Under the pieces are notes generated by a model. The model saw only the letters and a list, made by a program, of their open reading frames with translations. It had not been told where the DNA came from and ran no database searches. 39,563 nucleotides of DNA from a virus: UHGV virus genome UHGV-0170560; one strand, 5' to 3'. A program made the translations under genes and the position numbers. Shown piece after piece: positions 1-39,563 of this stretch; position 1 is the stretch's first letter; each line of letters begins with the position of its first letter.

Positions 1-29
1 CGGCAGCGTCAGATGTGTATAAGAGACAG
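1..29. other. Sequencing adapter remnant (Nextera/Tn5 read-1 adapter with mosaic end); not biological
   Basis: Bases 1-29 CGGCAGCGTCAGATGTGTATAAGAGACAG equal the Nextera transposase adapter lacking its first 4 nt. Confidence 0.9.
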
Positions 30-109
30 CCTTAATACGCAATACATTTACTTTCCTCTTTTGATGATCTTAAATGTCTTATTTTTCGTAATGTGTATAA
101 CAAGGAATA

Positions 110-32872: not shown

Positions 32873-33673
32873 TTACTTGATAAATCCTGCCGCCTTTCCC
32901 CGCCTGTATTCCTCCATCAGCCACTGCGCCGGTGTTATTCCCCCAAGGGTGGCGGCGTTAGGCATGCACCCGAAACTTCGCCCTGGTGGATGGTAAACGT
33001 CTCTCCCTGTGTCCGGAGGCGTACTCATGGGTTCTGGCTTTGCCTGTATGCTGATCACCGGATCGGGTATCTGCTGTCCGGAAGCCACCTTTTTCGCCCA
33101 ATCATCGAGCAGCCTGCGCGCGTGTTTCTCAACCTCAATCTCGCTAAGCTGGCGCTGATACATTGCACGGCGGGTATCACATACGACCCAGTACATAACC
33201 GGATGTCGCCACGGGAATCTTTCCGGACCACCAGGATATAAACTTTTTTCCTTGCTGTACCGGTGAAACTCCGCCATCACATCGTCAATGGTGATGCCAA
33301 GAACCATCTTGCTGTCTTTACACCACTTGATGAATTGCCCTGGCGACGGCCAGAACGGAGATTCACTGGCGCGGGCGTGGCGCATACCAGCAGAAACCTG
33401 TTCACGGGTTCGGATCCCACCTTCGGCAAACGCAGCAATCCACTGCTGTTTTGCAGCGACTTCCTGCTCTGGCGTCTTCAGGTTGGTTACCACTGCCGCC
33501 GGAAACAGTTGTTTCAGCTGTTTGAAAAGGGCATCAACAAGCCTCTCTGCTGACATGTTCACCACATTGTCATTGTTGACGTACTGATGCTCATAACCTG
33601 ACATGCGAGAAAGGGCTTCTCCGTCACGGTTTTGTATCGCGGTAAAAACGTTGTTCACAAGAAATCCTCCCAC
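32873..33673 (-). CDS. Replication protein P-like (helicase loader)
   Basis: 266 aa; QWIAAFAEGGIRTREQVSAGMRHARASESPFWPSPGQFIKWCKD closely parallels lambda P by recollection. Confidence 0.8.
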   Translation of the reverse strand: MGGFLVNNVFTAIQNRDGEALSRMSGYEHQYVNNDNVVNMSAERLVDALFKQLKQLFPAAVVTNLKTPEQEVAAKQQWIAAFAEGGIRTREQVSAGMRHARASESPFWPSPGQFIKWCKDSKMVLGITIDDVMAEFHRYSKEKSLYPGGPERFPWRHPVMYWVVCDTRRAMYQRQLSEIEVEKHARRLLDDWAKKVASGQQIPDPVISIQAKPEPMSTPPDTGRDVYHPPGRSFGCMPNAATLGGITPAQWLMEEYRRGKAAGFIK

Positions 33674-34470
33674 GCTTCAGGGCTGTTCCAGTGCGGAACG
33701 TTGTTATCAGGTAATGTTGATTGCTTCTGTCTGCTAATCTGCAGCCGCCTTGCCAGCTTCTGCTCCCACTGTGCCTGATGGTATGCCTTACCCTCAGCCA
33801 TCCAGTAAATTCTGAACTCTGCAAGTTCCTGTGCCGTTGGCAGACTGTCCAGGTAGATTCCCTGCAATGAGCTTTTTCGAAGAAAGTCATCTGATGGCTG
33901 CCATTGTTCATGCATGACAAATTTGCCTAATTGCCCTGGCCCACCAGGAGGAACAAAGTTATTCATCACGGCGTTGTTTGCGCCGGGGTCATGAGGCACA
34001 GAATCCCCGGTTTTTGTCCTGCTCTCCCTCTCTTGGTTAAATGACTGGTTATATGACTGGTTCTGGATCCCGTTTTTGGGATCATTCAACATCCCGTTTT
34101 TGGGATCATTCAACATCCCGTTTTTGGGTATATTCCCGTTTTCGGGAACATTACCGTTTTCGGGTTCATTACCCCCCTCCCGGTTGCCTTTAATGTTCCC
34201 GTTTTTGGTTATATTAAGAGAGAAAACCCGCACTCTTTTCGTCGCTCCCTTTCTCTCTCCGGTATCTAAAATAAGCCCCATTTTCATGAGCGATATAAGC
34301 CCGGCCTGCACGGTTTTTTTATTCAGGCAAGTGTCTTTAACGAGGCGTTCTATGCTGGGGTAGCAGAGGTTATATTCATCGGCTCTGTCAGCCATCGAGA
34401 GCAGTATGAGCTTTAATGACGAGCTACCTGGATCTGTCTCCCAGGCCCAATCTGTTGCATGTCTGCTCAT
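33655..34470 (-). CDS. Replication initiator O-like protein (iterons inside the gene)
   Basis: 271 aa; N-terminal HTH-like domain; internal NGN.P.NG repeat region encoded by the iteron array; overlaps the P-like gene. Confidence 0.75.
   Translation of the reverse strand: MSRHATDWAWETDPGSSSLKLILLSMADRADEYNLCYPSIERLVKDTCLNKKTVQAGLISLMKMGLILDTGERKGATKRVRVFSLNITKNGNIKGNREGGNEPENGNVPENGNIPKNGMLNDPKNGMLNDPKNGIQNQSYNQSFNQERESRTKTGDSVPHDPGANNAVMNNFVPPGGPGQLGKFVMHEQWQPSDDFLRKSSLQGIYLDSLPTAQELAEFRIYWMAEGKAYHQAQWEQKLARRLQISRQKQSTLPDNNVPHWNSPEAWEDFL
34066..34215. repeat. Iteron array, probable replication origin within the O-like gene
   Basis: Two perfect 24-bp copies ATCCCGTTTTTGGGATCATTCAAC (34066-34089, 34090-34113) plus 3-4 degenerate copies. 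Confidence 0.75.
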
Positions 34471-34485
34471 GATTAATCTCCGCTA

Positions 34486-34686
34486 TCAGCTTGAATGTTG
34501 TGGGGAGGAATTAATCATGATCTGCTTAATCTCTGCCCTGATACGACGGTTTGATTCCATGGTGCACTCAACACAGTGTCCGTTGTAAACCCAGCGTTCA
34601 CTGTCATGTCCGTGCTTACATGTTTTTCCGGTGTAGTAGCGTTTAAGTCCGCGCTTTGCGGCATCAATACGTGTAATGATTTCCAT
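34486..34686 (-). CDS. Small putative zinc-ribbon protein at the cII position
   Basis: 66 aa from internal ATG (start uncertain); CKHGH...CVEC motif. Confidence 0.4.
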   Translation of the reverse strand: MEIITRIDAAKRGLKRYYTGKTCKHGHDSERWVYNGHCVECTMESNRRIRAEIKQIMINSSPQHSS

Positions 34687-34790
34687 GGTAAGCCCTGTTA
34701 TTAGTATTGGGATTACGGTCATTTTGTGCTGACACAAAAAAAAGATCAACCAGATTTGGTTTTTTATTACCTTTGAGGTGCGAATAGATA

Positions 34791-34814
34791 TGAAAAGACC
34801 GCCGGGTGGCGGTC
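34791..34814 (-). terminator. Rho-independent terminator downstream of the Cro-like gene (tR1-like position)
   Basis: Stem GACCGCC/GGCGGTC with loop GGGT; T-run on the minus strand. Confidence 0.65.
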
Positions 34815-34836
34815 TACAGAGGGTTGTAGCTGGATA

Positions 34837-35067
34837 TCATGAGTAGAAGAAGTATGCCAGTTCTGCTTTTGAGCGCAGCCATTGTCTTGTTTTACAGGCT
34901 TTAAAAAGCCCATTCATCAATACTTTACCTGGCATTTTGCGCTTACCTGTTAAGTGAGTCTGGATATAGTGACTCGTCGTTCCGGCTTCCTGTGCGAAGG
35001 CTTCACGCTCATCCGGAGTAAGTGCAAGCCAGTGCTTTTTGAAATCGAAATGTCCGTTATCGCTCAT
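34837..35067 (-). CDS. Cro-like HTH regulator
   Basis: 76 aa with HTH-like segment EAFAQEAGTTSHYIQTHLTG; divergent from the repressor gene across an operator-rich intergenic region. Confidence 0.55.
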   Translation of the reverse strand: MSDNGHFDFKKHWLALTPDEREAFAQEAGTTSHYIQTHLTGKRKMPGKVLMNGLFKACKTRQWLRSKAELAYFFYS

Positions 35068-35103
35068 AGCTATTGCCTGATATTTATTTCAGATAATAAA
35101 TAT

Positions 35104-35166
35104 TCACCCATAAGGTAACAAAAATCAAGGATAGTTACCTATGGGGTGCATTTACCTGTTGGGTAA
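35104..35166. promoter_or_regulatory. Three adjacent operator-like palindromes in the repressor/cro intergenic region
   Basis: TCACC-CATAA-GGTAA (35104-35118), TTACC-TATGG-GGTGC (35135-35149), TTACC-TGTTG-GGTAA (35152-35166). Confidence 0.6.
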
Positions 35167-35221
35167 TATTGCTTTAAATTGAATCATCTACTGATTCATA
35201 TATGAGGCGATTTTCCAGAAA

Positions 35222-35806
35222 ATGAAAAGTATCCAGGACGTCCGCAGGCAAAATCTCAACGACTTGATCGACCGTGAATTCAATGGTGTTCAGACGCGGA
35301 TGGCAGAAAAACTTGGAACTCAGGCAAATCTGGTAAACCGCTGGGCTCTTGGCAAGAAGGTTATCGGCGACCAGGTTGCGCGAAAAATTGAAGCTGCCGC
35401 CAATAAACCACGTAACTGGCTTGATATCGATCGCTCGCTTTCTCAGGAAGGTTTTCAGCCTGTCGGCCCAAGCGACATTGGTCAGCTGGCGGCTCACAAC
35501 CTGGAACGCTGGATGAGCGAAAGCCGCGACCTTTCAACACAGGGAAAACTTCACCGCGCATCCGGCGTCGCCCAGGTGACAATCAGCCGCCTGTTAAACA
35601 ATGAGGTCAGCGTTTCCATTTCCACCCTGGAGAATGTTGCATCTGCATTCGGGCGTCACGGATATGAATTACTGATTCACCCGCACGACCCCGCGACTAT
35701 CAACTATGACCGCTCGCGCTACGCATTGTTACCTGAAACAGAGAAGGCAAAGATCGAAAGTTACATTGAATTTGTCATCAACCAGAACGAAAAAAGCAAA
35801 CAATAA
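35222..35806 (+). CDS. CI-like repressor without recognisable S24 autocleavage domain
   Basis: 194 aa with two HTH-like segments; no Ser/Lys peptidase-type C-terminal motifs recognised. Confidence 0.6.
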   Translation: MKSIQDVRRQNLNDLIDREFNGVQTRMAEKLGTQANLVNRWALGKKVIGDQVARKIEAAANKPRNWLDIDRSLSQEGFQPVGPSDIGQLAAHNLERWMSESRDLSTQGKLHRASGVAQVTISRLLNNEVSVSISTLENVASAFGRHGYELLIHPHDPATINYDRSRYALLPETEKAKIESYIEFVINQNEKSKQ

Positions 35807-36414: not shown

Positions 36415-37232
36415 AAGCGGGAATTTATTTCGACATCAGCAACGAAGACTACCACGCCGGTGACGGCGTGAGTAAATCGCAACTGGACATGGTTGCCAAG
36501 AATCCGGCGCTTCTTAAATGGGTTCAGGCAGCACCAGAAGACGAAGAGAAAAAGTCTGCACTGGATATGGGAACCGCATTGCACTGTCTGCTTCTGGAGC
36601 CTGGAGAGTTCGACAAACGCTTCATTGTTTCACCGAAATTCGAACGTCGGACGAAACAAGGTAAAGCTGACGAAGAGGCATTTCTTCGTGATGTGGCGGA
36701 TATGGGGATTACGGTACTTGATGCCGAGCAGTGGCGGAAACTGGAGCTGATGCGTGATAGCGCAATGGCTCACCCGGCGGCACGCTGGATGCTGGAAGCA
36801 CCTGGTTACTGCGAAGCATCAATGTACTGGAACGATGAAGATACTGGTGAGTTGTGCCGCATTCGTCCAGACAAATGGCTGAACGAGCACAACGTGATCG
36901 TCGACGTGAAAAAGGTTGCAGATATGGACCGTTTTGCACGCCACATCGAGGAATTCCGCTACCACGTGCAGGACGCAATGTACCGCGAAGGCGCAATGAG
37001 GGTTACTGGTCAGCCGCATGGTTTTTTCTTTCTTGCCGTGAGCGAAAGCATTGATTGTGGTCGATATCCGGTACGCGTGTTCGAGCTGGATGCGCCGGAT
37101 GTCGATGCCGGGCACGCTCTGTTCCGCCGGGATCTGAATACCTATCACGAATGCCGCATCAACGATGAGTGGGGCGGAGTGGAAATTATTAAACGCCCTG
37201 ACTGGGCACGCAAACAGGATATGTACATATGA
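36411..37232 (+). CDS. PD-(D/E)xK-type recombination exonuclease
   Basis: 273 aa; D...E/D-x-K-like motifs (RIRPDKW, VIVDVKK); directly upstream of and coupled to the annealing-protein gene. Confidence 0.6.
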   Translation: MKAGIYFDISNEDYHAGDGVSKSQLDMVAKNPALLKWVQAAPEDEEKKSALDMGTALHCLLLEPGEFDKRFIVSPKFERRTKQGKADEEAFLRDVADMGITVLDAEQWRKLELMRDSAMAHPAARWMLEAPGYCEASMYWNDEDTGELCRIRPDKWLNEHNVIVDVKKVADMDRFARHIEEFRYHVQDAMYREGAMRVTGQPHGFFFLAVSESIDCGRYPVRVFELDAPDVDAGHALFRRDLNTYHECRINDEWGGVEIIKRPDWARKQDMYI

Positions 37233-38170
37233 GCAACGACATCGCAAACATCAACGCACCAGTAGACACAGCAATCGCTGGAACTGCTGCAACTATTTTC
37301 AGCCCAGACGGCTTGAACCAACTGATGAAATTCGCCGAGGTAATGGCGCAAAGCCGCGTAACGGTACCGGCGCATCTCGCCGGGAAACCAGCTGATTGCA
37401 TGGCCGTGGCAATGCAAGCTGCGCAGTGGGGAATGAACCCGTTTGCCGTGGCTCAGAAAACCCATGTTGTGAACGGCACGCTAGGTTATGAAGCCCAATT
37501 AGTAAACGCAGTTATCTCAACGATGTCGCCAACAAAAGATCGCATCAACTACGAGTGGTTCGGGCCGTGGGAACGCGTGATCGGTAAGTTTGTTGAGAAA
37601 ACATCCAAAAACGGCAATCCATATATCGCACCAGGCTGGACTCTAAAAGACGAAGAAGGCTGCGGTGTTCGCGTATGGGCAACCATGAAGGGCGAGGATC
37701 AACCTCGAGTGCTTGAGTTAATGCTGTCTCAAGCACAGGTAAGAAACTCCACACTTTGGGCCAGTGATCCGAAACAACAACTCGCATACCTTGCGACAAA
37801 ACGCTGGTCTCGCTTGCACTGTCCTGACGTAATCATGGGCGTCTACACACCAGACGAATTACAGGAAACGGCACCGCGCGTTGAGCGAGACATTACTCCG
37901 CAAACGACCACTGCTGCGGGAATGAACAGTCTGATCAACGCTAAACAAGTGAAAAAGCCTGATGAGCAAACGCGTAAAGCGGATAGCCGTGATCCAGAAG
38001 AAATGCTGATGGCCTTTACCAGCGCAGCGATGAATTACAGCACTGTCTCCGAACTGGATAAAGCTTACAAATACATTGCACAAAAACTTTCAGATGATGA
38101 CGAACTGCTGGCAAAAGCCACCGACGTTTACAGCGTTCGTCGGGAAGAATTAAACGAAACATCTATGTAA
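37229..38170 (+). CDS. Single-strand annealing protein, Redbeta/RecT-like
   Basis: 313 aa; QWGMNPF...NGTLGYEAQ and ERDITPQ resemble lambda Redbeta regions (QYGLNPW, ERDITPV) by recollection. Confidence 0.6.
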   Translation: MSNDIANINAPVDTAIAGTAATIFSPDGLNQLMKFAEVMAQSRVTVPAHLAGKPADCMAVAMQAAQWGMNPFAVAQKTHVVNGTLGYEAQLVNAVISTMSPTKDRINYEWFGPWERVIGKFVEKTSKNGNPYIAPGWTLKDEEGCGVRVWATMKGEDQPRVLELMLSQAQVRNSTLWASDPKQQLAYLATKRWSRLHCPDVIMGVYTPDELQETAPRVERDITPQTTTAAGMNSLINAKQVKKPDEQTRKADSRDPEEMLMAFTSAAMNYSTVSELDKAYKYIAQKLSDDDELLAKATDVYSVRREELNETSM

Positions 38171-39522: not shown

Positions 39523-39563
39523 CTGTCTCTTATACACATCTGACGCTGCCGACGATCGCATAA
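39523..39563. other. Sequencing adapter remnant (reverse complement of Nextera read-1 adapter plus 8-nt index-like tail); not biological
   Basis: CTGTCTCTTATACACATCTGACGCTGCCGACGA followed by TCGCATAA. Confidence 0.9.

Follow-up and report, generated by a model that had tools for sequence, protein, structure and literature searches.

A probable replication origin embedded in the non-O-family initiator gene of a phiV10-like Escherichia coli phage

The window analyzed here, the whole 39,563-nt stretch of viral DNA UHGV-0170560, carries an array of six iterons in the linker-coding middle of an initiator gene outside the lambda O family, and this array is in all likelihood (a probability of about 0.8) the initiator-binding part of a theta-replication origin. 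An earlier note on this DNA had proposed the array as the probable origin, and comparison with related and better-known phages supports that proposal: the layout is lambda-style, in that dyad repeats occupy the linker-coding centre of the initiator gene and a gene homologous to lambda P adjoins it downstream. We infer that initiator binding, unwinding and helicase loading would all take place at the array site. The element is of an ordinary kind and, as its mechanism is that of the lambda paradigm, the conceptual advance is small, but it is unannotated for a common phiV10-like prophage family. Of 5426 complete E. coli genomes, 424 (~8%) have the initiator gene at an identity of at least 90%, and records there name it only “DnaT-like ssDNA-binding domain-containing protein”; elsewhere it is called “primosomal protein”. 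The phiV10 RefSeq record annotates neither an origin nor iterons, and our literature search found no papers describing an origin in phiV10/epsilon15 or DnaT-domain phage initiators with iterons. The likely origin, comprising the iterons and a candidate unwinding element, is placed here for a common E. coli prophage replication module, and the same module is present in phiV10-type reporter and typing phages.

A repeat search on the plus strand identified six in-register 16-bp units at 34067-34211, in agreement with the array previously noted at 34066-34215, with successive spacings of 24, 24, 18, 18 and 45 bp between unit starts (Table 1). The sense-strand form of the unit is ATCCCAAAAACGGGAT or TTCCCGAAAACGGGAA. 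Two perfect 24-bp repeats and further degenerate copies had been described, and both are present: the first two 24-mers of the array (ATCCCGTTTTTGGGATCATTCAAC) are 100% identical, and the degenerate copies follow in register. The description of each copy as having ATCCC...GGGAT ends applies to copies 1 and 2 and has to be amended for the others, as copy 4 has TTCCCG/CGGGAA arms forming a perfect 6-bp dyad, and copies 3, 5 and 6 have the inner CC(C)...(G)GG dyad only. Full dyad arms of 5-6 bp are thus present in three of the six copies and the inner CC..GG dyad in all six. Tandem Repeats Finder reports one array with a period of 24 (34067-34128; 2.6 copies, 100% matches, score 124) and one with a period of 18 (34118-34173; 3.1 copies, score 77). 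These are the strongest tandem repeats of the 39.5-kb window, in which the same program finds no second repeat cluster comparable to the array. Of the seven copies of the 10-nt core CCGTTTTNGG in the window, six are in the array; 0.24 copies would be expected for the whole window, and none of 100 shuffles reached seven. A lone iteron-like core (CCAAAAACGG in ACATCCAAAAACGGCAATCC) stands at 37605-37614, 3.4 kb from the array and without dyad arms, and is likely due to chance. As the earlier note had it, the array falls in the middle of the initiator gene and encodes peptide repeats, which read N-x-P-(K/E)-N-G and correspond to codons 87-135 of a 271-codon minus-strand ORF at 33655-34470. On the strand antisense to this gene, adjoining iteron halves (GGGAT...ATCCC) together with T5 score as terminator-like hairpins at 34077-34096 and 34101-34120 (+), probably as a by-product of the iteron dyads.

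Table 1. Features of the initiator locus and its iteron array (window coordinates).
Feature	Position	Strand	Description
Lambda P homolog (helicase loader)	32873-33673	-	PF06992; 19-nt overlap with initiator 3' end
Initiator gene	33655-34470	-	271 aa; N-terminal winged helix, iteron-encoded linker and DnaT-like C-terminal domain
DnaT-like C-terminal domain	33715-33921	-	aa 184-252; Pfam and PDB matches
Three 12-bp direct repeats, candidate DNA-unwinding element	34027-34062		sense AACCAGTCATAT / AACCAGTCATTT / AACCAAGAGAGG, from 34062 down to 34027
Iteron 1	34067-34082		sense ATCCCAAAAACGGGAT; 5-bp dyad arms; proximal to 12-mer repeats
Iteron 2	34091-34106		same sequence as iteron 1
Iteron 3	34115-34130		sense TACCCAAAAACGGGAT; dyad of inner 3 bp only
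Iteron 4	34133-34148		sense TTCCCGAAAACGGGAA; perfect 6-bp dyad; 16/16 identical to phi80 gp15-binding site 36683-36698
Iteron 5	34151-34166		sense AACCCGAAAACGGTAA; degenerate
Iteron 6	34196-34211		sense TAACCAAAAACGGGAA; degenerate; distal
N-terminal domain	34216-34470	-	aa 1-85; presumed iteron-recognition module; recurs with iterons in other phages

By its sequence the window is a phiV10-like (Uetakevirus-type) E. coli phage, its 816-bp gene region being 98.8% identical to that of phage EC.W1-9 and 96.7% to that of phiV10. Pfam identifies HTH_36 at aa 18-67 of the initiator (E = 2e-10) and the DnaT domain PF17948 at aa 184-252 (E = 1.1e-15; 57.5 bits against a cutoff of 25), and the PDB DnaT chains 9zbt, 6aep, 4ou6 and 2ru8 match aa 180-265 with E-values of 6e-21 to 2.5e-19. 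The iterons fill the linker that separates the two domains. An AF2 model of the initiator, built on a shallow alignment of seven near-identical sequences, has a mean pLDDT of 36, too low for the model to be used; Pfam shows a single HTH_36. We presume the DnaT-like C-domain to be an ssDNA-binding and/or helicase-loader contact module. The gene immediately downstream of the initiator is, by its matches to PF06992 (E = 1.4e-56) and to lambda P (31% identity over 201 aa, E = 2e-35), a true lambda P homolog, and the order of repressor, cro-like gene, small ORF, initiator and P is as in lambda. With the P-homolog ORF read from a GTG at 33673, its overlap with the initiator spans 33655-33673; the phiV10 record annotates a shorter overlap of 4 nt. 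The overlap of the two genes suggests translational coupling.

The designation of this initiator as “O-like” is apt for its position and function only, no similarity in sequence being detectable. Lambda O and phi80 gp15 both belong to PF04492 (gp15 with E = 6e-25), whereas the window initiator has no BLAST similarity to either protein and no Pfam match to PF04492 even at E-values up to 10. One of five members of the initiator family reaches PF04492 at E = 0.034, and an hhalign comparison of 81 family N-termini with lambda O and gp15 returned a probability of 50%, the 42 aligned columns taking in the recognition helix and the wing. In the Pfam and PDB searches the window initiator also lacks the lambda-O-type, P-interacting C-terminal domain and has the DnaT-like domain instead. 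On these comparisons, the initiator is no detectable lambda O homolog.

Repeats that lie within a coding region may exist for the sake of the protein, in this case as a flexible or interaction linker of N-x-P-K-N-G units whose DNA would be a coding image expanded by slippage. The spacings in this phage, all multiples of 3, are in keeping with such an origin of the array, as is the wide occurrence of the peptide motif among homologs. We weighed DNA against peptide in loci gathered from public collections with a repeat-free query, an alignment confined to the N-terminal 85 residues. The query yielded two sets of 80 loci, one of near-identical E. coli phages and one of diverse prophages (41-86% identity) from Vibrio, Pseudoalteromonas, Acinetobacter, Marinomonas, Providencia, Edwardsiella, Enterobacter and others; 79 of the diverse loci were analysable. 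In the 420-nt linker windows that follow the N-terminal domain in these 79 loci, the strict core CC[AG]AAAACGG occurs 134 times; the other 290 kb, counted on both strands, have seven copies, and the core is thus enriched 337-fold in the linker. The occurrences are divided 100/26/8 among the reading frames, with more than one frame used in 23 loci, and by frame the core encodes PKNG, T/S-Q-K-R or P-K-T-E/G. When sites are chosen solely for the peptide P[KE]NG, which gives 76 of them in 36 loci, proline is encoded by CCC in 76 of 76 cases (background 16%), lysine by AAA in 56 of 56 (62%), glutamate by GAA in 20 of 20 (62%) and asparagine by AAC in 73 of 76 (45%). CCC is the sole proline codon at the motif in each of the 36 loci that have it. 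Loci and within-locus repeats share descent, and Fisher P-values computed from these counts overstate their independence; the frame result and the per-locus count of 36/36 are free of that assumption and more robust. Replacement of the asparagine by Ile, Phe or Tyr leaves the dyad in the DNA intact or even improves it (CCCAAAATTGGG, CCCAAATTTGGG).

One DNA core read in three frames into unrelated peptides, together with frozen synonymous positions, indicates selection on the DNA and not on the peptide. The protein-level explanation is largely refuted by this reading-frame and codon evidence, as well as by the survival of the dyad through amino acid replacement, and we regard it as hardly credible. 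The N-x-P-K/E-N-G repeats would then arise incidentally from iterons lying in frame in a linker that tolerates changes of length, and the array would illustrate neatly how, in nature, a DNA element can dictate the sequence of a protein linker. Length variation among relatives fits the same picture of the linker. Close homologs range from 271 to 311 aa and differ in length by whole repeat units only, which indicates that the linker tolerates length changes. Among the near-identical E. coli phages (the window and the 80 loci, complete ORFs), the number of strict cores ranges from 4 to 9 without frameshifts, and the 311-aa variant has about 11 copies; changes always involve whole units of 18 or 24 bp. 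The arrangement found in the window (in sense order 45, 18, 18, 24, 24) is the commonest and is shared by 47 loci.

The array travels with the N-terminal domain of the initiator. Searches by tblastn showed that aa 1 to ~145, comprising the N-terminal domain and the repeats, recur together in four other phage types (Edwardsiella GF-2, Vibrio H20-like, Acinetobacter AP22-like and E. coli PPompW phages), and that the DnaT-like C-domain is found apart from them, joined to other N-termini. All four of these genes contain arrays of the same kind in the same place (CCCAAAATTGGGAT, CCCGAAAACGGTA, ACCCAAATTTGGGT and CCCAAAAACGG). The C-terminal half varies independently, as does the partner gene, from a DnaT-like domain with a P-type partner in the window and a DnaT-like domain in PPompW to another C-terminus with a DnaB-like helicase gene in AP22. 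The GF-2 initiator, a natural chimera followed by a P-type gene, joins the N-terminal domain and iterons of the window family to a C-half of the lambda-O type, which matches lambda O aa 156-299 at 62% identity; in the DNA, the change to lambda/phi80-like sequence comes directly after the A-rich stretch. In its retrieved locus this chimeric gene occupies 1501-2343 (L002). By these comparisons the N-terminal domain and its iterons are exchanged as a unit, a classical lambdoid module structure. The type phage of the genus, epsilon15, has an initiator (883-1560 of its retrieved locus) with only the DnaT-like C-domain in common with that of the window. Its N-terminus differs and its initiator gene has no iteron array, which shows the origin module to be mosaic within the genus.

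The strict core is missing in 40 loci, mostly of an Acinetobacter subfamily with a longer N-terminal domain, and loci without it carry a variant iteron GTCCCAACAAYGG or a palindrome GTCCCAACGTTGGGAC. Within Acinetobacter, the nine loci with a short N-terminal domain have 24 cores with an A/T centre and none with an AAC centre, while the 29 loci with a long N-terminal domain have none of the former and 84 of the latter. Iteron type thus tracks the domain and not the host, and this co-variation points to the N-terminal domain as the reader of the iterons. It also argues against the repeats being sites for some other factor, such as a host nucleoid protein or a phage regulator, or a hotspot for recombination and module exchange with no role in initiation. 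Such a reading could draw on the module junctions that adjoin the array, as in the GF-2 chimera, and on the polymorphic copy number, but it is very improbable given that iteron type follows the N-terminal domain within one host genus and that near-identical sites in phi80 are annotated as sites of the initiator gp15.

Beside the array, the three 12-bp direct repeats likely represent the unwinding element of the proposed origin, to judge from their sequence and their conservation in the family. Tandem Repeats Finder detects a period-12 repeat at 34034-34062, immediately next to the iteron arrays, and an A/purine-rich tract extends from the 12-mers to ~34010. The window has two exact AACCAGTCAT sites, both of them within the 12-mer element. 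In 49 loci an in-frame anchor, C[AG]GAAYC, directly follows the last (best) iteron, and is itself followed by three 12-13-nt direct repeats (GAAYC..YCA) and then an A-tract. The period is 13 in many loci, so the 12/13-mer repeats do not remain in one frame and are not a protein feature. Past the last iteron, AT content averages 0.73 between +20 and +40, compared with 0.57 for the locus as a whole, and self-identity is 0.37 at an offset of 12 and 0.40 at an offset of 13, against 0.30 after shuffling. As to an adjacent AT-rich unwinding element, the family as a whole has the A-rich 12/13-mers and the A-tract, but AT content reaches only 57% in the 12-mer stretch of the window, where such an element is weak and the term “three 12-bp repeats” is more apt. 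Nearest-neighbour calculations place this stretch among the least stable 4-6% of the window (z ~1.6-1.8). The opposite flank at 34188-34227, which contains the least stable 30-40 bp of the gene and is overlapped by iteron 6, is slightly less stable still (least stable 2% of the window). With modest minima on both flanks, stability does not single out either of them as the side that opens, and it is by analogy with known origins and by conservation that the downstream flank is favored as the probable site of opening.

The weakness of the AT-rich flank in the window phage would also suit an array of genuine initiator sites with mainly regulatory roles (autorepression of the operon, titration, handcuffing or exclusion of related phages), while opening and replisome assembly take place elsewhere. 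Iterons in plasmids also control copy number, which counts in favor of such roles. What makes a mainly regulatory array unlikely is that it is always followed by the conserved triple 12/13-mer repeat and A-tract, the usual anatomy of an unwinding element, that the window offers no other comparable repeat cluster, and that the lambda and phi80 origins sit at the equivalent site; on the other side, the extra distal iterons of Stx phages are poorly bound and nevertheless matter (PMC7466680). It counts against the origin reading that no DnaA boxes were found near the array, the nearest TTWTNCACA match being 1.7 kb away and the number of matches not above chance, and an Rfam scan of 33000-35500 gave no match. 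The minimum of cumulative GC skew at ~34-36 kb coincides with a switch in gene orientation (divergent transcription) and is for that reason not discriminating. Just downstream (sense) of the 12-mers lies a 6-bp inverted repeat, CCGGGG / CCCCGG, at 33983-33988 and 34005-34010, the arms being 16 nt apart. An inverted repeat also occurs to the right of the AT-rich region of lambda, in a similar position.

Lambdoid origins in the middle of gene O consist of iterons and an AT-rich tract, and the iterons nearest to the tract suffice for unwinding and replication (PMC7466680). The lambda origin, with four iterons and an AT-rich tract inside O and with P downstream, is among the closest known models for the window. 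In the comparison with lambda iterons that had been suggested earlier, the annotated lambda iterons (TCCCTCAAAACGAGGGA) follow the plan TCCC-(A-rich)-GGGA common to both phages, and in both the repeats fall within the linker-coding stretch at the middle of the initiator gene. Both phages have the A-rich element on the downstream side of the iterons, followed by the gene for a P-type helicase loader, and both have the gene order cI / cro / cII-like / O / P. Apart from the initiator family and C-domain, the window differs from lambda in an iteron that is 3 bp shorter between its arms, in spacings that are multiples of 3, by virtue of which the initiator protein carries peptide repeats, and in three 12-mers of moderate AT content where lambda has a strongly AT-rich tract of ~40 bp. 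Phage phi80 has four annotated gp15-binding sites inside gene 15 (36663-36739), likewise in the middle of the initiator gene, and the P-like gene 14 follows. One of these sites (TTCCCGAAAACGGGAA) is identical to iteron 4 of the window at all positions. The phi80 spacing is 20-21 bp, in contrast to that of the window, and hence its sites do not share one frame; a segment GAGAATTCTGACGAATCCTCTGAC common to phi80 and lambda is absent from the window. The arrays of the window phage, GF-2, phi80 and lambda can nonetheless be aligned column by column.

Other origins offer partial parallels. Stx phages have six iterons (PMC7466680). The origins of the Stx phages 933W and P27 resemble the window in that iteron number varies among close relatives and in that extra, poorer copies lie distal to the unwinding element (PMC7466680), but theirs are true lambda O/ori alleles, while the window initiator is of a different family and has a wider range of copies (4-9, up to ~11). 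In P22 and phage L, whose initiators are but distantly related to O, each gene 18 has its own iterons within the coding region (bioRxiv 10.1101/2020.10.05.325894). The window shares such embedding of iterons in the initiator gene but not their sequence, that of phage L (TGTCCAACGGA) being different. P22 resembles Acinetobacter phage AP22, a relative within the window family, in having a DnaB-type helicase partner, whereas the window phage uses a P-type loader. Iteron-plasmid origins such as RK2 oriV and pPS10 combine iterons with a DUE of 13-mers. They are intergenic, usually with DnaA boxes, and their Rep proteins have tandem WH1-WH2 domains. The window shares with them initiator repeats that adjoin 12/13-nt direct repeats and an A-rich stretch, and differs in having its array inside a gene and in the lack of DnaA boxes found nearby.

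Taken as an origin of the lambda type, the array suggests the following course of initiation. Dimers of the N-terminal winged-helix domain of the initiator would bind the dyad iterons, the best of which adjoin the unwinding element, and the sites containing A5-tracts could be wrapped into an O-some-like complex. This complex may destabilise the adjacent 12-bp repeats and A-rich tract (34027-34062), whereupon the DnaT-like C-domain would hold the single strands and/or recruit the lambda-P-like loader carrying the host DnaB. Transcription of the rightward operon would pass through the origin site. A further, tentative idea, which we think is rather less than an even bet, is that two N-terminal domains without detectable similarity, those of gp15 (PF04492) and of the window initiator (PF13730-type), read essentially the same iteron TTCCCGAAAACGGGAA, and that the DnaT-like C-domain may capture the unwound 12-mers. 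If both domains bind TTCCCGAAAACGGGAA, co-resident prophages could fire, titrate or block each other's origins, and the common site would be due either to convergence or to a very deep homology in which DNA specificity has stayed frozen. Capture of the 12-mers by the DnaT-like C-domain, if true, would mean that a primosome-restart module has been recruited to origin firing.

The order of elements seen in this family may serve as a rule for finding origins: an N-terminal winged helix, followed by iterons in any frame, three 12/13-mers and an A-tract. The rule would extend to many Vibrio, Acinetobacter, Edwardsiella and enterobacterial prophages. In distant family members, high-GC Desulfovibrionaceae loci, quite different repeats occupy the same linker position, as CGCCGGAAACGG present three times in one locus (L145) and as CCCCCGAAC(C/G)(A/T)(C/G)GTTC in another (L162), and the gene-embedded iteron layout thus reaches well beyond Gammaproteobacteria. 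Elsewhere in the window, the 9-mer TTATACACA occurs three times at the ends, at 14-22 (-), 92-100 (-) and 39530-39538 (+); if the window is a permuted whole genome, these three copies lie within ~130 bp of each other.
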